Positions 5 through 11,545 are shown, counted from the first letter of the stretch. The stretch is 64,000 nucleotides of DNA from Candidatus Falkowbacteria bacterium (GCA_037132255.1 JBAXPN010000001.1:191395-255394); one strand, 5' to 3'. Numbers and translations are program-made. The notes: generated by a model from the letters alone, not told the origin.

Positions 5-3000
5 ATGTCTTGGTACAATGACTTCAATGGCGTTGTAACTATCCCTGCTTCTGAATTACAAAGCTACCCATTAGGTGGCAATGTAGTAATGAGAGCGGGC
101 ACCAAGTTAGTGAAAATCACAACTGATCCTTCCGTTTACGCTGTTGAACCTAATGGCGTTTTAAGAAAGATCCAAAGTGAAGCACAAGCTGCAGCTTTAT
201 TCGGCACCAACTGGAACAAGAGAGTTGTTGACGTTTCTGACGCTTTCTTCACTAACTACACTATTGGCGCAGTTTTAGCTAATGGTGTTATCCCAGCTGG
301 TTCCTTAGTAAAAAATGCAAGCGGTGCTGAAATCTTTTACTTCGACGGAACTAACTATCGTTCAATCGCTAACGAAGCTGCTTTCAATGCAAATAGATTT
401 GCTTGGGGCAACATTATTACTGCTAGCTCTACTGTTACTGCTGGTGGTTCTAATCTTTCAAGCGGTGAATTCGTTAACGTCGCACAAAATGGCGGCACTG
501 GAATTGTTATTACTGGTTCTGGTTTAATGGTTTCATTAAATGCCAGCACTCCAGCTGCAGCTTCAGTACCACAAAATGGTGCACGCGTTCCAATGGCTAA
601 AATCAATTTGACTGCAGCTAATGATGGCGCGGTAAGCGTTAACTCAATTCTTGTTAAGAGAATTGGTTTATCTTCATATAGTGATGTTAACCAAGTTTGG
701 ATGGAAAAGGACGGTTCTATCGTTGCTTCCAAAAAGACTGTTAACTCCAATGACGAATCTATCTTAACTTTCTCCCCAGCTTTAATCGTTAATGCTGGCC
801 AAACTGTTACTTTAGATTTAATTGCTTCTTTGAAGGGTTCAGGCGGCAACATGGGCTTCAGTATTGCTTCTGCTTCTGCAGTTAGTTCAACTGGCGCTAC
901 TGTTTCCGGTTCTTTCCCTGTTAGTGGCAATGTAATGTCATTGACTAGCTATAACGTTGTTAACCTTTCAATCACTACTACTGCCGCTACTCAATCTGTA
1001 AAGGTTGGTGACGAAAAGGTAGAATTAGGTAGTTTTGAATTAGGTTTCAATAGTACTGCTAAGGACGTTACTGTTAGCTCAATCATGTTAAAGAATAATG
1101 GCGTTGAGGATCTTTCCAAGACTGCTATGAATCTTTACTTAGAACAAGCTGGTAATAAGGTTTCAACTGGCGTAACCGTAAATGGCCGCTATGTTACCTT
1201 TACTTTCGGTTCTGGTTTAAATTTACTTAAAGATGACTCTTCCAAGATCTTCAAGATCAAGGGTGATGTCATTGGTAAAGAAAATACCGGTACCCCTAGT
1301 TATACTTTCACTTTGAACAAGAGCACTGATTTGATTGCTTATGAAAAGAGCACAGGTTTTGGCGCTAATGTTTTAAATGGTACATCTGGCAGCGTTTCTG
1401 CTGACAACATGACTATTTCTAATGTTAACATCACTTCCGGCGCAATTTCTGTTTCTAAGAAATCAACTTCACCATCTGACACTACTATCGTTAAGGGTTC
1501 AGACAACATTGTTTTATTAGCTAACGTTAAGACTGACGAAGCGATGAATGCTGATGGCTTAAACATTAGCTACTCTTCAGACGGTTCACAGGCTCTTACA
1601 ACTGATCAATTTGAGAACGTAAGAGTTTACGTCAATGGCGTACTTTTGGATTCTTTTGATCCAGCTACGACTACAGCTGTAATTTCCAAGTCTATTGATT
1701 CAAACTTATCCTTAGTTAAGGGTGATAATGAAATCAAGGTCATGGCTAAGGCTAAGACAAATGCTACTAACAATGCAGCTTTCATTGCTAAATTAGTTAC
1801 TGGCGTTGGTTCTGATGCTTTATTTGCATCTAAGAATCCTACCTATGTTTCATCTGGTAACGCTATTGCTGCAGGCAGCATTGGTGGAAGCGCAACTGGC
1901 GCAACCTTCACTGTCGCTGGTGCAGTTATCTCTGTTACAAGAAATGATGGTTATTCCGCTGGAAAGACTATCGTTAAAGGTAGTAATGATGTTTCTTTAG
2001 GTAAGTTTACCTTAAAGGCAACTAATGATGCTTTAACAGTTACTTCTATTTCTTTAGCTGGTAACTCAACTGCATCTACTTCTACTACTACTGATTCTTC
2101 AATTTTTGACGCTAAGGTCTATGTTGATGGCGTTCAAGTTGGTAATACTGTAGATTTCACATCTACTGGTGCTAATTTCTCGTCATTAAATTTCTCCATT
2201 GCTAAGGATACTACAAAGAGTGTCGAAATTAAGGCATCCTTTGATTCTTCTGCAACTGGCGGATTTAAGACTGTTATGACTGTCAATGCTCAAGATTCAC
2301 GTGGTAAGGAAATCACAACAAACAACACTGCTTCTACTGTCGACTTCAATGTCACATCTGCTGGTTCTTTGAACGTAGCTTTAGGTGGTAATACTCCTGC
2401 TGCTGCAATCTTAGTAGCTAAGGCTGCTGAACAAGAAGTTGCTCAGATTAAGTTCACTGCTATCAACGATAGCGCGAGCATTACTGAAATCAATGTTATT
2501 AATTGGGATGGCGTATCTGCTACTTCCACAACTGCTGACCCAAGAATCGCTTCTGTCAAATTATATGATGGCAGCAATTTATTAGATTCTTTCGTTCCAG
2601 TTAACGGTGCAGGCAAATTCACTATCTCCAATGATGCAGCTTTAATCGCTGCTAATAACAGCAAGACTTTATCAGTTAAGGTTTCTTTGAACCCTATTGA
2701 TAATGACTCTGCTGCAACTGATAAGGATTTAATGATCAGAGTAACTACTGTTAAATCCAAGTCATCTGCTGGTTCTGTTACAAGCTTAACTGCTAATGTA
2801 AATGCAAATAGCTTCCGTATCAGAAAGACTGTTCCTACTGTTACTTTAGCTGCTTTACCTTCAACTTTATTAACTGCTGGTAACACAGTAGTTTCCAAGT
2901 TCACTGTAAGCGCTGATAGTAATGGTGACGTTGCTTTAGGAAAGATTGTGTTAAATTATTCTACTTCATCTGATGTAGTTCTTAACACAGCTGTTCTAGC

Positions 3001-3331
3001 CAACGCTGTTAAGGTTAATGGTGTAACCAAGTCTGCAACTTCTACTGTTAGCATTGCAAACAAGACTATCACTATCGACTTCACACAGTCTGCTGAAGAA
3101 ATTGTTTCTGCTGGTACTTCTAAGACAATTGAAATCTTAGCTAATATCGTTTCTGTTGGTAATAACTCACAATCTTTGACAACAACGATTGCTGAACCTT
3201 CTACCTACACTGATGGTGGCAGCACTACTTTCCAATGGTCTGATGGAGCTTCCATCACTGCAGCTACTTATTCTAGTGGCCGAAGAGTACCTGGCTTAAG
3301 CACGGACACTCAGGTTCTATCTAAGAACTAA
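5..3331 (+). CDS. Cell-surface protein with tandem Ig-like beta-sandwich repeats; the N-terminus lies upstream of the window (5'-partial)
   Basis: The ORF is open from the window edge. The 1108-aa translation is Thr/Ser/Val/Asn-rich and built of repeated ~100-aa beta-strand modules (e.g. VxVxDxxLxxxxxT, KGD...G). It is followed by a clean rho-independent terminator. Confidence 0.5.
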   Translation: MSWYNDFNGVVTIPASELQSYPLGGNVVMRAGTKLVKITTDPSVYAVEPNGVLRKIQSEAQAAALFGTNWNKRVVDVSDAFFTNYTIGAVLANGVIPAGSLVKNASGAEIFYFDGTNYRSIANEAAFNANRFAWGNIITASSTVTAGGSNLSSGEFVNVAQNGGTGIVITGSGLMVSLNASTPAAASVPQNGARVPMAKINLTAANDGAVSVNSILVKRIGLSSYSDVNQVWMEKDGSIVASKKTVNSNDESILTFSPALIVNAGQTVTLDLIASLKGSGGNMGFSIASASAVSSTGATVSGSFPVSGNVMSLTSYNVVNLSITTTAATQSVKVGDEKVELGSFELGFNSTAKDVTVSSIMLKNNGVEDLSKTAMNLYLEQAGNKVSTGVTVNGRYVTFTFGSGLNLLKDDSSKIFKIKGDVIGKENTGTPSYTFTLNKSTDLIAYEKSTGFGANVLNGTSGSVSADNMTISNVNITSGAISVSKKSTSPSDTTIVKGSDNIVLLANVKTDEAMNADGLNISYSSDGSQALTTDQFENVRVYVNGVLLDSFDPATTTAVISKSIDSNLSLVKGDNEIKVMAKAKTNATNNAAFIAKLVTGVGSDALFASKNPTYVSSGNAIAAGSIGGSATGATFTVAGAVISVTRNDGYSAGKTIVKGSNDVSLGKFTLKATNDALTVTSISLAGNSTASTSTTTDSSIFDAKVYVDGVQVGNTVDFTSTGANFSSLNFSIAKDTTKSVEIKASFDSSATGGFKTVMTVNAQDSRGKEITTNNTASTVDFNVTSAGSLNVALGGNTPAAAILVAKAAEQEVAQIKFTAINDSASITEINVINWDGVSATSTTADPRIASVKLYDGSNLLDSFVPVNGAGKFTISNDAALIAANNSKTLSVKVSLNPIDNDSAATDKDLMIRVTTVKSKSSAGSVTSLTANVNANSFRIRKTVPTVTLAALPSTLLTAGNTVVSKFTVSADSNGDVALGKIVLNYSTSSDVVLNTAVLANAVKVNGVTKSATSTVSIANKTITIDFTQSAEEIVSAGTSKTIEILANIVSVGNNSQSLTTTIAEPSTYTDGGSTTFQWSDGASITAATYSSGRRVPGLSTDTQVLSKN

Positions 3332-3371
3332 GTAAAGTCTTCCCGATTTTCTTTAATTAATCGGAACAATA

Positions 3372-3399
3372 AAAGAGCCCCTTTGGGGGCTCTTTTTTG
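3372..3399 (+). terminator. Rho-independent terminator
   Basis: GC hairpin AGAGCCCC-TTTG-GGGGCTCT followed by a T6 run, immediately after the stop of the surface-protein gene. Confidence 0.8.
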
Positions 3400-3426
3400 T
3401 CGGTAATTTTTGCTAATTTTATTGAA

Positions 3427-3455
3427 TTGAAGCAGACAGGGAATTATGATATAAT
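3427..3455 (+). promoter_or_regulatory. Sigma70-type promoter with extended -10 (TTGAAG-17-TGaTATAAT)
   Basis: -35 TTGAAG at 3427-3432, a 17-nt spacer, then -10 TATAAT at 3450-3455 preceded by TGa. It sits upstream of the 3576 and 3873 genes. Confidence 0.5.
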
Positions 3456-3575
3456 TTTTTATACCTCCCCGATATTTAACTTGAGATTTAACGAGCTACC
3501 GGAGGCAATTATTTATTAATTGCCGTATACCATTTATCATTATCTTCTCCTAATGTTAGATGGTGGGCCAAAATT

Positions 3576-3791
3576 ATGTCCCAATTAGCGCCAGTTATGT
3601 TAACAGCTGATCAATTTAATCAGCTCGCAACAAAAGAAGACATCAAAGAGTTGTCGGAAAAAATGGAAGAAAGATTCAATATACTTGATTACAAAATAGA
3701 CACAAACGGGGCGCAGAGCTACAAAGATACAAACGCCGCGATATTAAACCATGAAATTAGGATAAAAAAACTTGAATCAAAATATATTTAA
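3576..3791 (+). CDS. Hypothetical small protein (71 aa), predicted coiled coil
   Basis: ORF lying between a strong promoter and the next gene. It has no recognisable family; the sequence is charged and helical. Confidence 0.35.
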   Translation: MSQLAPVMLTADQFNQLATKEDIKELSEKMEERFNILDYKIDTNGAQSYKDTNAAILNHEIRIKKLESKYI

Positions 3792-3872
3792 ATTAAGCAT
3801 AATAGCCGTCGACAGCCCATCGACGGCTATGTTATAATAACCTTGTTATATATTTGCTAAATTATTAAAATT

Positions 3873-6131
3873 ATGTCGCCAAAAACTTATTTAAGAATTT
3901 TGCAGGGTGGTATTATCGCATCGCTATTTATCATTCTTCTTGTCTTTAAAAATTTGCTTTTCCCGTATATTACCTCGAAGCAACTGCCGTTTAATATTAT
4001 TATGGAGATTCTCTTCGCGCTCTGGGCTGTATTTATGCTTCGATATCCGGAGTATCGACCGAAGAAGAGTTTTATTTCTTATGGATTAATTGCATATTTT
4101 GCCGCTATTCTCGTTTCTTGTTTTATTAGTGTTGATTTTAATTTAAGTTTTTGGGGTGACGCTGAAAGAATGCTTGGCTTCTTTCACTTGGTCCATTTCT
4201 TAATCTTTTACTTTATATTGATAACAGTTTTCCGCACTTGGAAAGAATGGCGCTTGCTCTTTCAGGCATCCGTCGCGATTGCTACTATTGTCAGTTTCGT
4301 TGGTTTATGGGGCGCTAATTCTTATAGCACAATTGGTAACACAGCTTACGTTAGTGGCTATTTAATATTTAGCATTTATTTTATTATTCTGCTTTTCTTC
4401 CGTTCCCAGGATAAGTTGGCTCGTTGGCTTTATATTTTACCCTTAATACCGATGGTGATAGAATTTTGGCGAATGCATACCTCCGGAGCAATTATAGGCT
4501 TGACTCTTAGCATCCTCCTGATGATTTTATTATTCGGCTTATCCCATGTTAATAAAATAATTCGACGTAGCTCTCTAATTATATTTATTCTAGCAATCCT
4601 AGGTATAGTTTGGATATTTTCACAATCAAGTTCCTCTTGGTTTCAAAATAGTTTCTTAAGAAATTTAACTTCACAAAAAGTTACTTTCCAAACCCGTTTA
4701 ATTTCTTGGAAGGGAGCAGCGGCTGATTTTAAGTATCATCCAATTTTTGGCACCGGCTTTGGTAATTATGCCATTATTTTTGATAAGCATTTTACTTCCG
4801 ACTTTTATAACTACACGACCGGAGATACTTATTTTGATCGCGCTCATAATAATTTAATTGATATTACTTCAACCACTGGTCTTGTTGGGCTCGCAACTTA
4901 TCTCAGTATTTTCCTGGCTGCTATTTATTATCTTTGGAAAGAATTTAAGCTTAACGGGAAGAGAACAAGCTCTGATATTGGTGGTCTAAATAATATTGAA
5001 ATTATTATTGCCGTATCTCTCATTGCTGCCTATTTTATTCAAAATTTGGCAATATTTGACTCCTTCTCGACGCTTTTAGGGCTTATTAGCATCCTAGGCT
5101 TCGTTTATTGGCTTGATTATCGTCGCGGCGCAGGTAGCGAGATTAAGAAAGAACCACGCCTTGCTATAAAGGGCGACAATGCGGAATTGATTTGTCTAAT
5201 CGGCTTCTTAGCAATTGCCTATATTTTTACTAATTATTACAACGTCCGTACCTGGAAAATGTTTACCGGATCAATTGATGGCTATGCGCAAATTGCTAAT
5301 GGTCAATTAATCAGTGGCGTAGAGGCCTATAAGTCGAGTTTAACGGGGCGACCGATGGAACGTGACGCACGGGTAACTTTGATTAATCTTGTTATTTCAA
5401 ATCCTAGTTTATTATCAAATCTTGATAGTAAAAAAGCGGGCGAGATATTGGATTATGTAATTGGACTAGCCGAAAAGAATGTCTCTTATAATGTCGAGGA
5501 TAGCATGCAGCAAATGCAATTGGCACAAATTCTTGATGCGGCTGCACGCTATAATTACCGTAATGCCGAGAAATTTAATTTCTACTCAAGTCAGGCAATG
5601 TCGGCCATTGACGCTTCTATCGCGGCAAGCCCGGGACGTGCCACAACCTACTTTGTTAAAGCTCAGATGCAACTTATGCGCATGGAGAATGAGGATGCCA
5701 TAAACACTATGAAGGTCGGCATCGCTTTGAATCCTAATTATTATGAAGGTCATTGTCGTTTAGCGCAGATGTACTTTGTTCTTAAGGATCCGAAGTATGA
5801 AGCCGATAAAGGTTTGGCCTTAAATAACTGCGTTGACAAGGGAGGGGTTGATCAGATTGGTTCAGATACCCTATTAAAGTTAGCGATTAATTATTACTCA
5901 GACGCGAAAGACTATTCACGCGCGGCAATATTAACTGAGCGCCTTGCTGTTGTTACCGGAGCTGACCCAGAAGTTTGGTATAATTTAGCCAAGCTTTATG
6001 CTGTTATTGGTAGTTCAACTAAGGCTGAGGAATCATTTCAAAAGGCTTACGCGCTTGATTCTACGATTTCCGTAAAAGATTGGCAGGCATTTAAGACTAC
6101 TATTGAAACAAATCGAAAGGCCGTGAAATAA
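3873..6131 (+). CDS. O-antigen ligase (Wzy_C)-like polytopic membrane protein fused to C-terminal TPR repeats
   Basis: The N-terminal ~450 aa has about 10-12 hydrophobic helices and a large loop typical of WaaL/Wzy-type ligases. The C-terminal ~280 aa carries TPR-like motifs (...AKLYAVIGSSTKAEESFQKAYALD...). This Wzy_C-TPR fusion is a common architecture. Confidence 0.6.
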   Translation: MSPKTYLRILQGGIIASLFIILLVFKNLLFPYITSKQLPFNIIMEILFALWAVFMLRYPEYRPKKSFISYGLIAYFAAILVSCFISVDFNLSFWGDAERMLGFFHLVHFLIFYFILITVFRTWKEWRLLFQASVAIATIVSFVGLWGANSYSTIGNTAYVSGYLIFSIYFIILLFFRSQDKLARWLYILPLIPMVIEFWRMHTSGAIIGLTLSILLMILLFGLSHVNKIIRRSSLIIFILAILGIVWIFSQSSSSWFQNSFLRNLTSQKVTFQTRLISWKGAAADFKYHPIFGTGFGNYAIIFDKHFTSDFYNYTTGDTYFDRAHNNLIDITSTTGLVGLATYLSIFLAAIYYLWKEFKLNGKRTSSDIGGLNNIEIIIAVSLIAAYFIQNLAIFDSFSTLLGLISILGFVYWLDYRRGAGSEIKKEPRLAIKGDNAELICLIGFLAIAYIFTNYYNVRTWKMFTGSIDGYAQIANGQLISGVEAYKSSLTGRPMERDARVTLINLVISNPSLLSNLDSKKAGEILDYVIGLAEKNVSYNVEDSMQQMQLAQILDAAARYNYRNAEKFNFYSSQAMSAIDASIAASPGRATTYFVKAQMQLMRMENEDAINTMKVGIALNPNYYEGHCRLAQMYFVLKDPKYEADKGLALNNCVDKGGVDQIGSDTLLKLAINYYSDAKDYSRAAILTERLAVVTGADPEVWYNLAKLYAVIGSSTKAEESFQKAYALDSTISVKDWQAFKTTIETNRKAVK

Positions 6132-6155
6132 AGAAAAAATAAAGAGAGAATTTAA

Positions 6156-6188
6156 AAAATCAGATCTTCGGGTCTGATTTTTTTTATT
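6156..6188. terminator. Rho-independent terminator
   Basis: Hairpin AATCAGATC-TTCG-GGTCTGATT followed by T8. Confidence 0.8.
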
Positions 6189-6313: not shown

Positions 6314-7243
6314 ATGAAATTATCTTTTTATCGCCAAGTAAAAATTAATCGAAAAATATTAATAATCGCCTCAGTGATACTTGTGCTTATGACGATTATT
6401 AGCTACTACCTGATTCGATTATTTAGTCTTAGTGGTTCGGAAATTGCCCTAGCCGAGCTTGAGAAGTCGTATTCGGCGGAACCAATTTGTCACGTTAAAT
6501 GTGATATTTGGCGAAGAGAAAAGGAACAAATAATAATTAAAGATTTAAAGAAGTTCTCCCCTAAAGCGACTAAAAGAATGGAAAAATATTGGTCATTTCT
6601 CCCTGACGATTCCCGATTTAAGATTGAAATTGCCCAGATTGCCCTTCTCGCTTATGGCGAAAATAATCCACCGGTTTATTTAAAAGAATACCTTGATAAT
6701 CCGTCGGCTGATTTAAAATTACTTCGCGAAATAATTATCAGATTTAATTCGCTGGCAGTTAATAATCGAATATTAATTAATAATTTATCTAAGATAGCGA
6801 AAAATGCGAGTTCAAGCGAAATAAAAATAGCGGCTATTCAAACATTAAAAGAAATTAATAACGACGGGGAAATAGGAAACTATTTCAAAATAATTAATTC
6901 GAATAGTGAGCTCAACGTTAAATTAGAATTAGTCAAAAATATAAGTAATATTCGTGATAAGCAAAATATATTCACGAAAGAGCAACTGGAAATTATTAAG
7001 AATATTATTGTGAAAGGGGATACTGAAAACCCCTTACGGCAATCATTGGTGCAATTATTAGGTGATTATTATTTGATATATCCGGATGAAAGTATCTCGA
7101 TTTGGCAATCAGTCTATAAAAATGAGGCTCTCGATAGTATCAGTCGTAGTTTTAGTGCCGACTATATAAATCACTTAACAAATACGAATTTAGATATACC
7201 GACTGTTAGCGATAATGAATGGCAAGATTATTATAATCAGTAA
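6314..7243 (+). CDS. Membrane-anchored protein with HEAT/ARM-like alpha-helical repeats
   Basis: One N-terminal TM helix, then repeated ~30-aa amphipathic helical units (...SEIKIAAIQTLKEIN..., ...PLRQSLVQLLGDY...). The family assignment is tentative. Confidence 0.35.
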   Translation: MKLSFYRQVKINRKILIIASVILVLMTIISYYLIRLFSLSGSEIALAELEKSYSAEPICHVKCDIWRREKEQIIIKDLKKFSPKATKRMEKYWSFLPDDSRFKIEIAQIALLAYGENNPPVYLKEYLDNPSADLKLLREIIIRFNSLAVNNRILINNLSKIAKNASSSEIKIAAIQTLKEINNDGEIGNYFKIINSNSELNVKLELVKNISNIRDKQNIFTKEQLEIIKNIIVKGDTENPLRQSLVQLLGDYYLIYPDESISIWQSVYKNEALDSISRSFSADYINHLTNTNLDIPTVSDNEWQDYYNQ

Positions 7244-10200
7244 TTATATGAAAAAAATATTGATAATTATATTCGGACTTATATTTTTACCCAAAATCTG
7301 TGGTGCTATGCCACCCGGAACTTTAGTCTATCGAACATCGGAAAATGGTCGGATGTTTGGTTATAGTGGCGATCCTTTAATATATTCGGAAAAAGGAATA
7401 GTAAAAAATATAAACTCCGGTCATGTTGGTATATACATCGGTCAGGAAAATGGCGTAGATTATATTGTTGAGGCCCTAGCTAATGGTATAGTAAAAACAC
7501 CGGCTGACAAATTTGTAAATTTAGGCGAGGGAGAAAAATATTTAGGAGCAAAAATTCCAAAAAATCTTTCCGCTATTCAACAGGCCAAGGTTGTCGCAAT
7601 TGCCAAGAGCTTAGTCGGAAAAAATCTGGCTTATGATTTTGATTTCAAAACTCAAAAGGGTCCGGAGTCGGGAGAATGGACTTGCGTCGGTCTAACAGAA
7701 AAGTTATACGAAAGTGCAAATATTTATAATCCAAATAATTTAGGTTCTCTAGAATATGAAACAAGCTATTACGCAATTGATATAACTCCTGACGGTTTTG
7801 ATAATTATAGTACTGTAAATTCCTACGGTGATTGTTTTTCGGCTGATTATGAATATTCAAAAATTGCTGCCCGTGTTGATATATTAATCCCCGCGCCCGA
7901 ATTAGTCGGATTCGATGTCGGTCTTATAAAAGATGATGAGCGCTATATATTTATCCCTTATACTCAATATCTTCAGCCCAGTTTAAGTGATATTACTACC
8001 GATATAACGATGGAATCATATTTTAATGGTTCGGAAGTTCGTGGTTCAACTTCTAAATATGCGCTTGCGCTGCGTTGGAGCTTAATTAATAATCCATCGT
8101 CGTCATTAAGCACAATCGCACGTAAAACAAAAGAGGCGGTAATAAGTTTGAAAAATAGAATATTCGGGAACGGAACAGACGCAGCAGAAATTGCGCTTGT
8201 TACTGAAAATACTTCAAACCAAAATGTCACGTCAGAAGACACAACTGCAAAAACCGGGGCGCTTATAAATAAAGCGACATCGACAAAATTAGAAGATGCT
8301 GAAATAAATGATCCTAAAACTACAAATACTGGTAAGCAAGCTACAACTGCAAAGACCAGTACGAGTAAAACGGTTTCTACTAAGACTAATTCAACCCAGA
8401 CTAATTCGGTTTCTAATAATAAAACGAATCAAAACACAAATACCATTAATGACTCAGTTGAGGCGGCTAGTTACTATAGTCCCGCTAAAGCGTCGGAAAA
8501 TACCGTTATAGCGGCGGATTCTAAAGTTATAGAGACGCCAAAAATTGCGACTGTAAGTAGAATATACGCGACGGGAAATAATAAATGGATTGAATTATAT
8601 AATCCGACGGATTTAGATTTTGATTTAGCGGCTGCTGGCTATCGTTTGGAAAAAGCCAAGACGGCAGCTGACCCAACTTTAATAATGCGCATCGGAAAGA
8701 CCGAAGATGGTTCTTATCCCGGAGGAACAATTATTAAAGCGCGTGGCACATATATGATTGTAAAAAGTACGGCGAGTGATTATTACTTACGACAGGCTGA
8801 TGCCGTAGCCACGCGTGATGATTTTACTTGGCCAAGTTCTGGATACACAATATATTTGGGCACGGGAGCGATAAGTTCTAATACCGATCCCGACATAGTT
8901 GAAGCTCTTGGCTATGGCGCGAATGCGACCTATTATCAAGGGGACGCTCCAGCTCCTGAAATCACTGATAATTATAGTCTTAATCGCCAAAAGGGTAGTG
9001 GAAATAATAATCTTGATTTTAAACTCGTTAAGTCCGATGACCCAACAATTGACTGGACAATTGATAATGAAGAAGAAACATCAAATACAGCAACAAGCAC
9101 GATAATAAATACAGCAGCTAGTACAAGTACTATTTCGACTACTACACATATTATTGCAACTACAACGCCAAGCATATCAAATAGTACTAATAATATTGCT
9201 TCGACGACAAGTAATATTGCGACCTCAAGCCCGAATCAGGCCAACACGCTTCCGCTTCTTATAAATGGAATTTATGGCAGCGGTGTAAATGATTGGATAG
9301 AATTGTATAACCCGAATAATTTTGCAATTGATTTGTATTCAAATGAATATCGTTTAGAAAAAACTAAAACGGCGATAGACCCAGCTCTTATCATGAGAAT
9401 TGGTGATCCGCTAGATGGTTATTATCCCGGGACTACAATCATAAACGCCAATGGTAAATATCTGATTGTGCGCGATGATGCCGATCAATTTTTTAAAGAT
9501 AAAGCCAGCGCCATTGCGACTCGTTTAGATTTTAGCTGGTTAAATTCCGGATACACATTATATTTAGCTAGCGGCCCAGTTAGTTCAAGTACCGATGAGG
9601 ATATTATCGACACCCTGGGCTTCGGACTTAATGCAACTTTTTGGCGCGGTTATAATCCAGCAGAAGCGATGAAAGACGGTTATAGTTTAAGCAGAACTTC
9701 AAATACTGGTAATAATAATTTAGATTATAATTTATTGAAGTCTGATGATCCTAGTATTGATTGGTCAGAGGAAAATAGTGATACTGGGACATCGATGAAT
9801 ATTTACAATTTTTCCACCTCTTCTTACGACCTATTTTCTTTTCCGGAACCAATAAATTCCGCCGGCTTAGAATATGTCTGGCATTTCGATGAATGCACGG
9901 GGTCTACAACTGCGAGTAGTTTAGGCAATTCTACTCTAAACGTAGCTAATCATTGGAAGTCGGGGAAGTATATTTGCTCTAAGGAAGCGGGATATGACTA
10001 CGGGAAGATAGTTGGGCCACTGGATAAACAAATTGATATAAATAATTTCACAATTAGCTTTTGGTTTAAAGCAACTCAAAGCTATCCGCGATTAAGTTTA
10101 ACTCTCGCAAACGATCAGAGTGATTCAATAAATGTAACCCTGGAACAAGGATTGATGCAATTTAGTGGCTTAGCAAATCCGAGTTGGCGATATTATCAAG

Positions 10201-11081
10201 ATTTTGCTTTTGATAATACATGGCGGCAAGCAACGCTGGTTGTTAATCGTAATGATGGTTATTGGGCTTTGTATATTGACGGGGAAGAAGTATTTTATAT
10301 TGATACTTATAAAATGATGCCTGCGATGGATTTAATTGAGCTGGGCGGCGATAATGGTCCTTTTGCTGTAGACGAATTAGCGATTTGGAGTCGTGCATTA
10401 ACGCCTGACGAAATAATTGATATCAGAAATTCTGAAGCTCCGTTTAGCCCTGTTTATTTGCCAGAAGCACAGCAAATTCCAAAATTAAAACATTTTTGGA
10501 ATTTCAATGAAGGCATTGGCACGACAACTCGAGATTTAATTGGAAACACTGACTTGCCGATTGATAAAAACGCTTGGACTAATATTGATGTTAACAATAG
10601 TGCATTAAATAATAATTCAGGTCGAATAATTAATGTAAATTTTCCCGAAATTGATTCGTCCGACCTTTCCTTAACCTTTTGGTGGCGAAGTTCTAATACC
10701 TATTATCGTAATGAATCGAGGGTAGCTCTGCGCAATGAAACAAGCGCCAATATTTTATCTCTAATTCCGAGTCAATTTGTTTCAGGCTATGTCTATAGTA
10801 ACGCCTATAGTTATTTTAGTAGTGGCGAGAATCAAACAATCCCTAATGACTTAAATTGGCATCTTTTAGCTTTAAGTTATGATTCTTATCGTAATTTACT
10901 TCGATTTTATGTTGATGGAGTTGAAAAGGGTAGTCGAAGTTATATTTGGGGAGCAGAAATACCACTCATTAATGCCTTAGAAATTGTCTCAGAGCAGGGC
11001 CAAACAGAAATTGACAATTTAGGTATTTGGGAAGGTGCGCTTAGCCCTGCCCAAATTCAAGAAATATTCGCTAATAATTGA
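7215..11081 (+). CDS. Giant secreted multidomain protein: signal peptide, permuted papain-like (YiiX/LRAT-like, His-then-Cys) domain, Thr/Asn-rich linker, two lamin-tail (LTD) domains and two LamG/concanavalin-A-like domains
   Basis: N-terminal signal/TM (KKILIIIFGLIFL). SGHVGIYIG...EWTCVGLTEKLYE has the His-before-Cys order of permuted papain-fold enzymes. WIELYNP...YRLEK...YT(I/L)YL occurs twice, which is the LTD signature. WHLLALSYD...LRFYVDG and WRQATLVVNRNDGYWALYIDG are LamG_3-like. Confidence 0.6.
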   Translation: MNGKIIIISNYMKKILIIIFGLIFLPKICGAMPPGTLVYRTSENGRMFGYSGDPLIYSEKGIVKNINSGHVGIYIGQENGVDYIVEALANGIVKTPADKFVNLGEGEKYLGAKIPKNLSAIQQAKVVAIAKSLVGKNLAYDFDFKTQKGPESGEWTCVGLTEKLYESANIYNPNNLGSLEYETSYYAIDITPDGFDNYSTVNSYGDCFSADYEYSKIAARVDILIPAPELVGFDVGLIKDDERYIFIPYTQYLQPSLSDITTDITMESYFNGSEVRGSTSKYALALRWSLINNPSSSLSTIARKTKEAVISLKNRIFGNGTDAAEIALVTENTSNQNVTSEDTTAKTGALINKATSTKLEDAEINDPKTTNTGKQATTAKTSTSKTVSTKTNSTQTNSVSNNKTNQNTNTINDSVEAASYYSPAKASENTVIAADSKVIETPKIATVSRIYATGNNKWIELYNPTDLDFDLAAAGYRLEKAKTAADPTLIMRIGKTEDGSYPGGTIIKARGTYMIVKSTASDYYLRQADAVATRDDFTWPSSGYTIYLGTGAISSNTDPDIVEALGYGANATYYQGDAPAPEITDNYSLNRQKGSGNNNLDFKLVKSDDPTIDWTIDNEEETSNTATSTIINTAASTSTISTTTHIIATTTPSISNSTNNIASTTSNIATSSPNQANTLPLLINGIYGSGVNDWIELYNPNNFAIDLYSNEYRLEKTKTAIDPALIMRIGDPLDGYYPGTTIINANGKYLIVRDDADQFFKDKASAIATRLDFSWLNSGYTLYLASGPVSSSTDEDIIDTLGFGLNATFWRGYNPAEAMKDGYSLSRTSNTGNNNLDYNLLKSDDPSIDWSEENSDTGTSMNIYNFSTSSYDLFSFPEPINSAGLEYVWHFDECTGSTTASSLGNSTLNVANHWKSGKYICSKEAGYDYGKIVGPLDKQIDINNFTISFWFKATQSYPRLSLTLANDQSDSINVTLEQGLMQFSGLANPSWRYYQDFAFDNTWRQATLVVNRNDGYWALYIDGEEVFYIDTYKMMPAMDLIELGGDNGPFAVDELAIWSRALTPDEIIDIRNSEAPFSPVYLPEAQQIPKLKHFWNFNEGIGTTTRDLIGNTDLPIDKNAWTNIDVNNSALNNNSGRIINVNFPEIDSSDLSLTFWWRSSNTYYRNESRVALRNETSANILSLIPSQFVSGYVYSNAYSYFSSGENQTIPNDLNWHLLALSYDSYRNLLRFYVDGVEKGSRSYIWGAEIPLINALEIVSEQGQTEIDNLGIWEGALSPAQIQEIFANN
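8559..9770 (+). repeat. Intragenic tandem duplication encoding the two LTD domains (copies about 8559-9055 and 9261-9770)
   Basis: The protein segments IYATGNNKWIELYNPTDLDFDL...NNNLDFKLVKSDDPTIDW and IYGSGVNDWIELYNPNNFAIDL...NNNLDYNLLKSDDPSIDW are collinear with about 50% identity. Confidence 0.6.
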
Positions 11082-11084
11082 TAA

Positions 11085-11111
11085 AAAAAGCCACTTTCGG
11101 GTGGCTTTTTA
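11085..11111 (+). terminator. Rho-independent terminator
   Basis: Hairpin AAGCCAC-TTTCGG-GTGGCTT followed by T5. Confidence 0.8.
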
Positions 11112-11149: not shown

Positions 11150-11545
11150 TATTAGGGCAAGCGGGCAATCGCTCTTTTTTGTAGTTTACTATAAAAGGGA
11201 GAGGAAAGTCCGGACTTCATCGCTTGGTAACAAGCGGAGACGATAGTGGGTAACGCCCACCGAGGTGTTTAATTTATTAAACGCTTTAGGGAAAGTGCCA
11301 CAGAGACAATACTAATTCTGGAATTTATTGACAGAATCAAAGGTGAAAAGATGCTGGGTGTTTCTTCTTGAAGCTACTGGCATCGGCCTCCGGTGACGGA
11401 GATGCCGTGGTAAACCCTATCAGAAGCAAGAGCAAACTTTTGCCAGTTTGGCAAAAAGACAAGTAGCTCGCATGAGCTTATTAGTAATAATAAGCCTAGA
11501 TAAATGATTGCTAGAACAGAATCCGGCTTACGGCTACCCTAATAA
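11150..11545 (+). ncRNA. rnpB: RNase P RNA, bacterial type
   Basis: Carries the universally conserved P4 strands GAGGAAAGTCCGGACTTC (5') and ACAGAATCCGGCTTACGGC (3'), plus GGTAACGCCCACC and GGTGAAA elements. The 5' ATTAGGG... and 3' ...CCCTAAT ends can pair as P1. The length of about 395 nt fits. Confidence 0.85.

Follow-up and report, generated by a model that had tools for sequence, protein, structure and literature searches.

The four catalytic residues of the permuted NlpC/P60 enzymes, Cys, His, Glu and Tyr, were defined by Xu et al. in 2011 (PMC3142127). In permuted members the S1 site is generally hydrophobic and fusions to membrane-targeting modules are frequent; one of them, Escherichia coli YiiX, gave crystals in which a fatty acid occupies a narrow hydrophobic S1 tunnel (PMC3142127). 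The characterised permuted members, LRAT/HRASLS, Tox-Act1, TseH and LnsA, are phospholipases or acyltransferases (PMC3142127; PMC12994826; PMC7387801): Tox-Act1 hydrolyses phosphatidylglycerol and phosphatidylethanolamine, TseH has phospholipase activity (PMC12994826), and LnsA is required for lipoprotein N-acylation (PMC7387801). For bacterial proteins, the lamin-tail domain (LTD) has been suggested to target its carrier to membranes or structures associated with them (PMC6085458). Here we describe a protein that joins a permuted NlpC/P60-type head to two LTDs and two LamG domains. It is encoded on the plus strand of a 64,000-nucleotide stretch of DNA from a Candidatus Falkowbacteria bacterium (GCA_037132255.1, JBAXPN010000001.1:191395-255394); this whole stretch is referred to as the window, and positions are counted from its first letter. 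The gene, which we call the C92 gene after the Peptidase_C92 family of its head, lies directly behind a gene for a membrane protein with HEAT repeats, its partner. By analogy with the characterised enzymes, we propose that the C92 protein would be a surface thiol acyl-hydrolase or acyltransferase with membrane lipids or lipoproteins as its substrates; its LTD and LamG modules would target it, and the HEAT-repeat protein would anchor or restrain it. To this proposal we assign a probability of roughly 40%. What the analysis itself shows is the domain composition, a catalytic tetrad that is intact and invariant, a fold matching that of YiiX, an export signal, the obligate pairing of the two genes and the phyletic restriction of the family.

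The catalytic head begins with a permuted papain-like core of the YaeF/YiiX type (PF05708; 7308..7727, +), recognised by Pfam, by a YiiX profile alignment and by Foldseek. When the N-terminal 287 aa are scanned alone, Pfam returns PF05708 (Peptidase_C92) at 35.8 bits against a cut-off of 27, a match that is masked in the scan of the full-length protein, and 40 of 41 orthologous N-terminal domains match the family at E<=0.01. Numbering residues from the Met codon at 7248, the catalytic positions are His59 (codon 7422-7424), Glu75 (7470-7472), Tyr129 (7632-7634) and Cys146 (7683-7685), and in a profile of 41 orthologous N-terminal domains they align residue for residue with His49, Glu64, Tyr115 and Cys128 of YiiX. 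Against the PDB, an N-terminal-only profile recovers YiiX weakly (E=0.063) with all four catalytic residues aligned; with a full-length profile the YiiX match is lost and a LamG match alone is returned. An AlphaFold2 model of residues 1-325, computed from 54 sequences, has a pLDDT of 81.5, and in a Foldseek search of the PDB chains A and B of YiiX (2if6) are the sole matches at E<=0.001, with a probability of 1.00 and a TM-score of 0.63 normalised on YiiX. As expected of a permuted enzyme, His59 precedes Cys146, and Cys146 opens a helix (residues 146-155) in the model. The His/Glu/Tyr/Cys tetrad is invariant in 120/120 homologues; here and below, homologue counts and invariance refer to the best 120 of 264 relatives found by a word-based protein search. 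The predicted catalytic apparatus of a permuted NlpC/P60 thiol acyl-enzyme is complete.

A first-pass annotation of the window had described this region as a permuted papain-like domain with His before Cys, either NlpC/P60-like or LRAT-like. The permuted fold and the order of the two residues are confirmed by the PF05708 match, the fold match to 2if6 and the alignment to YiiX, in which His59 and Cys146 correspond to the YiiX pair. The assignment to NlpC/P60 stands in the sense of the permuted YaeF/YiiX clade; canonical NLPC_P60 (PF00877) and CHAP (PF05257) found no match even at E<=1 in the N-terminal scan, and the LRAT family PF04970 gave no Pfam match there. On sequence evidence the head is a distant relative of YiiX and no orthologue: the NCBIfam YiiX model and a sequence search with PDB 2if6 give weak yet specific matches, and the score for the equivalog NF007458 is 22.1 bits, where the cut-off is 216. 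The Cys helix is followed by a family-specific conserved extension of the catalytic domain, about 130 aa long (residues ~161-290; 7728..8117, +), delimited from the alignment and the AlphaFold2 model. No Pfam family covers it. In the model it lies within the same globule as the core, with mostly good pLDDT, and its invariant residues, among which polar and aromatic ones are numerous, include N161, P162, Y170, Y175, D182, E202, S204, E218, R232, Q240, Q243, N282, P283 and S285.

The closest described proteins share some features with this one and differ in others. E. coli YiiX and YaeF and Bacillus cereus BcPPNE (PF05708; 2if6, 3kw0) have the same permuted core of His, Glu, Tyr and Cys and are likewise extracytoplasmic behind a signal peptide. 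The Falkowbacteria head differs from YiiX in its very low sequence similarity and in the conserved extension of ~130 aa after the Cys helix; whereas YiiX is a stand-alone protein of ~200 aa, the domain here heads a protein of ~1280 aa with two LTDs and two LamG domains, and it comes with an obligate HEAT-repeat partner gene. Tox-Act1 and TseH, both type VI secretion system (T6SS) effectors (PMC12994826), also have a permuted His...Cys core and, by analogy, a comparable action on membranes outside the cytoplasm, and they too are encoded alongside a membrane-associated partner, in their case an immunity protein. However, Tox-Act1 and TseH/DUF6695 form clades separate from that of YiiX, and they are T6SS-delivered, polymorphic and found in conflict-system contexts, in contrast to the Sec-exported LTD/LamG fusion protein described here, which occupies a conserved core-genome locus. 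Staphylococcus aureus LnsA of the LnsAB system (PMC7387801), likened to the C92 protein from its published description, is an extracytoplasmic YiiX-like protein that depends on a second, membrane-embedded protein. LnsA is nevertheless a small single-domain protein, unlike the multidomain C92 protein, and LnsB is a polytopic protein of the CPBP family encoded elsewhere, whereas the partner here is single-pass, composed of HEAT repeats and adjacent; none of the neighbouring genes scanned by Pfam, at this locus only, matched the CPBP family. The eukaryotic LRAT/HRASLS proteins (phospholipase A/acyltransferases; PF04970) have the permuted NlpC/P60 fold and carry out acyl transfer through a Cys-thioester or phospholipase A1/A2 cleavage of phospholipids, but they act at the cytosolic face and are anchored to the membrane C-terminally, unlike the protein described here. 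Fusion of a secreted hydrolase to an LTD is known from ExeM/NucH-type enzymes (PMC6085458), which have an EEP nuclease catalytic domain and a single N-terminal LTD where the C92 protein has a putative thiol acyl-hydrolase.

The gene is present as the longest open reading frame at 7215-11081 (+), from which the first-pass annotation had taken a protein of 1288 aa overlapping the HEAT gene by 29 nt. Translation more likely starts at the ATG at 7248, giving 1277 aa, because this start matches both the 1277-aa NCBI record P0001, annotated as 'LamG-like jellyroll fold domain-containing protein [Candidatus Falkowbacteria bacterium]', and the signal peptide found throughout the family. The ATG at 7248 lies 4 nt past the stop codon of the upstream gene, so the overlap was an artefact of the 7215 start, and it opens a textbook signal peptide (MKKILIII...CGA, ahead of MPPG). 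The start codon and Sec signal peptide together (7248..7307, +), MKKILIIIFGLIFLPKICGA, cut before MPPGT, are delimited from the open reading frame, the NCBI record and the family pattern; in the family alignment the homologues have in common a signal peptide ending in ...LPxxC[RK]A, followed after the cleavage point by MPPGTLLYR. Export is predicted to proceed through this cleavable Sec signal peptide, and with it and the record naming Candidatus Falkowbacteria the earlier description of a secreted multidomain protein of a patescibacterium is borne out. We considered anchoring as a lipoprotein through the conserved signal-peptide Cys at -3 and rejected it: the residues before the Cys do not make up a lipobox, and the Cys itself is missing from several members. 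An 89-aa antisense reading frame within the C92 gene (7973-8242, -) is unsupported and in all likelihood spurious.

Beyond the catalytic extension, a long helix leads into a low-complexity Ser/Thr/Asn/Lys-rich linker 1 (8118..8552, +; 41% Ser+Thr+Asn, 22% mean family identity), followed on the same strand by LTD1 (8553..9080, +; PF00932), a Ser/Thr-rich linker 2 (9081..9260, +; 66% Ser+Thr+Asn), LTD2 (9261..9785, +; PF00932), a first LamG/concanavalin-A-like domain with a conserved pair of cysteines, Cys883 and Cys910 (9843..10433, +; PF13385), and a second LamG domain that ends with the stop codon (10470..11081, +; PF13385). Pfam assigns the LTD family PF00932 to two stretches at 44.9 bits against a cut-off of 34.3, and PF13385 (Laminin_G_3) to two stretches at 76.6 bits against a cut-off of 27.6. 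The whole order proposed by the first-pass annotation, namely signal peptide, permuted papain-like domain, Thr/Asn/Ser-rich linker, two LTDs and two LamG domains, is thus recovered, as is its claim of an intragenic LTD duplication: over 185 aa, LTD1 shares 54% identity with LTD2 (BLASTP, E=9e-71), which marks the duplication as clear and fairly recent. Between LamG1 and LamG2 the identity is 24% (E=2e-14), and the profile of the family hits, at LamG2, the LamG-like domain at the C-terminus of the Geobacillus arabinanase 5hon (E=6e-5). LTD2 is aligned in 119/119 of the other homologues. About 20 of the 120 close homologues have a single LTD copy aligned and are shorter proteins of about 1070-1180 aa; from the sequences, the duplication is not universal in the family, and between one and four copies occur among more distant variants.

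The partner gene (6314..7243, +), characterised with AlphaFold2, Foldseek and a family hidden Markov model (HMM), encodes a 309-aa single-pass membrane protein. A positively charged N-terminus precedes a transmembrane (TM) helix at about residues 13-37 and an extracytoplasmic alpha-solenoid of HEAT/alphaRep type. The AlphaFold2 model is all-alpha with a pLDDT of 87.8, and its best Foldseek matches are alphaRep/HEAT-like repeat proteins; the earlier reading of a HEAT-repeat membrane protein was correct. A word-based protein search with the partner finds only 6 proteins, the query itself among them. When its orthologues were collected from C92 loci with a purpose-built HMM, the partner was found directly upstream of the C92 gene in 76/76 evaluable loci. 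A homologue (E=6e-26) also lies upstream of a variant carrying a beta-helix, in an unrelated neighbourhood (locus L088); for a Portnoybacteria variant, homology of the upstream 313-aa protein, which has a TM segment and is helical, could not be demonstrated. In the same loci, phmmer scores for the partner are 26-280 bits, against about 340-1640 for the full-length enzyme protein, and to judge from these scores the partner is evolving much faster than the enzyme. The pair formed by the HEAT gene and the C92 gene appears as the constant unit of the locus, one conserved two-gene module. Just outside the membrane, the partner has a conserved C59-H60-x2-C63 motif, of which C-x3-C is recognisable in the L088 homologue and which could be a disulfide or a metal site.

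The best 120 relatives of the C92 protein are mostly full-length, have 37-61% identity and share its architecture; wherever a match of the word-based search carries an organism name, that name belongs to the Patescibacteria group. Compared exhaustively by HMMER with 1.84 billion cluster representatives, the N-terminal domain gave 137 matches only; in nearly all of them the domain stands directly behind a signal peptide in a protein of 1000-2500 aa. Scanning one genome per GTDB species yielded 119 encoding loci. The family therefore seems, from these searches, almost confined to Patescibacteria, with ~119 species representatives. Some weak relatives of the N-terminal domain (P0233 and P0223) bear names from outside this group: they occur in a protein named from a metagenome-assembled genome (MAG) of a Candidatus Pacearchaeota (DPANN; E=2e-6) and in short groundwater contigs labelled Deltaproteobacteria. 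These could reflect transfer among ultrasmall symbionts or binning errors. Many loci, L008 and L012-L015 among them, come from third-party-assembled MAG records titled 'uncultured Gammaproteobacteria bacterium' and carry the Patescibacteria-type block of C92 protein, rnpB, PGT, GT4 and mnmA; the titles look like placeholders or mislabels and are untrustworthy as taxon names.

The distribution of constraint along the protein bears on what the protein does. Mean identity to the reference is 73% in the catalytic core, 61% in the extension, 61% in LTD1, 53% in LTD2, 41-42% in the LamG domains and 22-33% in the linkers; as far as sequence comparison can tell, the enzyme head is the most constrained part and the distal modules are adaptable. 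More distant variants, of which the Portnoybacteria member is one example, retain the enzyme and one to four LTDs and have their C-terminal modules swapped (LamG, beta-helix, DUF2341, fn3 or Ig-like). Because the catalytic head is the most conserved part, it is the enzyme activity, not adhesion alone, that would be under the strongest constraint. The adhesin named as one option by the first-pass annotation is weakened by the same figures, the LamG domains being the least conserved (~41%) of all the domains; host attachment through LamG or LTD is possible.

We can outline how the proposed enzyme might operate. After Sec export, the mature N-terminal head would act through an acyl-thioester on Cys146, together with His59, Glu75 and Tyr129. 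At a membrane surface, it would most likely cleave the ester or amide bond of a fatty-acyl group, since every characterised permuted member acts on such groups, and the product of the gene would accordingly be a phospholipase A/acyltransferase or a lipoprotein or lipid amidase, rather than a peptidoglycan endopeptidase. The Ser/Thr/Asn-rich stalks would be flexible, joining the head to the two LTDs and two LamG jelly-rolls, which most plausibly place it at a surface that lies close to a membrane or bears glycans, on the envelope of the cell itself or on that of a host. The HEAT protein, predicted to be co-transcribed and with its solenoid facing outward, most plausibly binds the enzyme, and might fix it to the membrane of the producing cell, keep it inactive as self-protection, or do both. 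If the patescibacterial membrane is, as one may presume, made of scavenged lipids, then a protein restraint on a lipid-cleaving enzyme would make sense, although this is speculation. We infer that the substrate would be a lipid, that the LTD and LamG modules would target the enzyme and that it may interact physically with the HEAT partner. Several results favour this proposal: the coupling of enzyme and LTD persists across architectures while the C-terminal modules vary, export is indicated by the C-x-A cleavage site ahead of MPPG and by the conserved Cys pair of LamG1, and the fold of the partner is that of a protein-binding solenoid.

A number of observations weigh on the other side. The sequence similarity to YiiX is low, at 15-22 bits and far under the equivalog cut-off of 216, and YiiX itself is without a proven function, Xu et al. 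having proposed a lipopeptide amidase from the bound ligand alone (PMC3142127). The many invariant polar residues of the extension could equally recognise a peptide or a sugar. The gene adjoins surface-glycan genes in most Falkowbacteria-like genomes, and a glycan- or wall-related role is possible. In addition, the family is limited to a part of the Patescibacteria (~119 species), so that it is no general solution for the phylum.

A more specific form of the proposal concerns the supply of lipids. Patescibacteria are unable to synthesise fatty acids or phospholipids, and a 2024 perspective knows of no mechanism by which they take up or break down lipids (PMC11665869; bioRxiv 10.1101/465690); lysolipids from neighbouring bacteria have been proposed as their lipid source (PMC11665869; bioRxiv 10.1101/465690). 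The two-gene module might be a lipid-harvesting device of Falkowbacteria-type Patescibacteria, in which a surface thiol phospholipase A/acyltransferase would strip acyl chains from host membranes or make lysolipids from them, the freed acyl chains or lysolipids would be incorporated, the LTD and LamG modules would direct the enzyme to host membranes, and the membrane-anchored HEAT protein, as inhibitor or anchor, would protect the symbiont's own membrane, made of the same host lipids. We hold this extended version to be rather improbable as a whole. The broader proposal of a lipid-directed surface enzyme may nevertheless offer a candidate for how lipid-auxotrophic Patescibacteria of one large lineage handle membrane lipids, the link being inferential: the protein is strongly conserved, exported and of the lipid-directed permuted NlpC/P60 type, and it always occurs with a putative membrane-anchored binding protein. 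If the substrate instead proved to be wall- or glycan-related, the protein would be a lineage-specific envelope enzyme of unusual enzyme-LTD-LamG design with an obligate HEAT partner, and would add a data point on the roles of YiiX-type enzymes.

All three domain families are already known, and the protein is in the databases under a generic name. We found no published description of the family or of its architecture in the literature on Patescibacteria LTD/LamG proteins and on PF05708. What is new is the divergent, extended YiiX-type head on an LTD-LamG protein, its near-restriction to Patescibacteria and its obligate HEAT partner.

The neighbourhood of the pair needs to be considered before the rival explanations can be weighed. 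The gene order is Wzy_C-TPR (3873-6131), HEAT partner, C92 gene, Bac_transf (PGT), GT4 and GT4. A sequence scan finds a terminator-like hairpin after the Wzy_C-TPR gene (6154..6183, +), the upstream boundary of the two-gene unit, and an intrinsic-terminator-like hairpin, GCCAC-TTTCGG-GTGGC with a T run, at its end (11085..11110, +). Comparable hairpins occur within 90 nt after the C92 gene in 38/66 loci and after the Wzy_C-TPR gene in 39/60; after the partner gene there is none (0/66 loci). The apparent gap of 470 nt that follows is filled by the RNase P RNA gene rnpB (bacterial class A, 196 bits; 11153-11545, +), which also stands between the C92 and Bac_transf genes in 7/7 related loci tested. 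The Wzy_C-TPR gene is upstream in 50/65 loci, and PGT and two GT4 genes are downstream in 55/60, but the housekeeping genes mnmA, parAB and dnaE hold the same order across loci as well, and much of the conservation of the neighbourhood is therefore backbone synteny. More distant variants keep the enzyme-partner pair with no glycan genes around it. We accordingly rejected a single functional cluster or operon with the glycan genes, since rnpB lies between, the hairpins bracket the pair and the distant variants do without them; the glycan genes are probably neighbours rather than operon partners, in transcription units that are predicted to be separate. The functional cluster that the first-pass annotation had seen in the co-location with Wzy_C-TPR and surface genes loses force for the same reasons of hairpins, rnpB and backbone synteny.

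The rival explanation that survives best is a cell-wall hydrolase, whose head would cut stem peptides or amides of peptidoglycan in remodelling the cell's own wall or in breaching that of a host, with the LamG and LTD modules binding wall glycopolymers. NlpC/P60 enzymes are best known as peptidoglycan endopeptidases, invariant polar residues are frequent in the catalytic extension, a polysaccharide-degrading enzyme ends in a LamG-like domain that LamG2 resembles, and surface-polysaccharide genes (Wzy_C, Bac_transf and two GT4) surround the gene in most genomes. The head, however, belongs to the permuted YaeF/YiiX type, its His preceding its Cys, and it left the canonical NLPC_P60 and CHAP families unmatched at E<=1; the hydrophobic S1 pockets of permuted members have been judged unsuitable for peptide, and these enzymes act on lipids. 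As to the glycan genes, hairpins and rnpB separate them from the pair and they are absent around the distant variants. The host-cell-wall-modifying activity suggested by the first-pass annotation is likewise weakened by the placement in a clade whose characterised members are lipid-directed, and by this analogy wall modification is the less likely activity; the rival as a whole we consider unlikely.

It is also conceivable that the two genes form a toxin-immunity pair, in which a secreted membrane-disrupting phospholipase would be directed against hosts or competitors and the HEAT protein would be its cognate immunity protein, shielding the producer's own membrane built from host-derived lipids. 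The position of the partner, extracytoplasmic, membrane-anchored, strictly adjacent and co-oriented, would suit such a role, as would its much faster evolution compared with the enzyme head and the precedent of Tox-Act1, a permuted NlpC/P60 phospholipase toxin with a membrane-associated immunity protein (PMC12994826). Yet the enzyme domain sits at the N-terminus, following a Sec signal, unlike the C-terminal domain of a polymorphic toxin, and it is highly conserved at a fixed core-genome position by rnpB, mnmA and dnaE. No T6SS, type V or type VII secretion system (T5SS, T7SS) genes lie beside the pair in the loci examined, PADLOC and toxin libraries not having been searched; the exception in this survey of secretion genes is a gene for a T2SSE-family ATPase just downstream of the beta-helix variant at L088. 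A toxin-immunity pair thus seems quite improbable to us. Equally improbable is a mainly structural surface glycoprotein or adhesin, whose stalks would carry O-glycans added, as in S-layer glycosylation clusters, by the Wzy_C-type, PGT and GT4 machinery encoded nearby, with LTD and LamG serving attachment and the enzyme head an accessory: the long Ser/Thr/Asn-rich linkers, the frequency of the Wzy_C-TPR gene upstream and of PGT and GT4 downstream, the large putative surface protein further upstream that has no Pfam match, and the LamG domains as the most variable globular parts, as expected of ligand-adapting modules, all speak for it, but the strongest purifying selection falls on the catalytic head with its invariant tetrad, and the glycan genes are predicted to be in separate transcription units and are missing around the distant variants.

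Three further proteins of these neighbourhoods deserve mention. The Wzy_C protein (O-antigen ligase/polymerase-like; 3873-6131, +) has a C-terminal TPR domain and belongs to an organism not expected to make lipopolysaccharide; it may be a protein O-oligosaccharyltransferase or a glycopolymer ligase. At L088, a second secreted-looking protein of 999 aa with three LTDs and PKD domains (1891-4890 of that locus, +) is encoded just upstream of the HEAT-partner homologue, and LTD-rich proteins seem to cluster there. At the start of the window, 5-3331 (+) encodes a Ser/Thr/Ala/Val-rich protein of at least 1108 aa, which may be cut by the window edge and, read from the listed start, shows no obvious signal peptide; it has no Pfam match, and the earlier label of an Ig-repeat protein is thus not confirmed. 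In many related loci, relatives of this protein, 1185-1235 aa long, lie upstream of Wzy_C-TPR, and the product could be an S-layer or surface protein.

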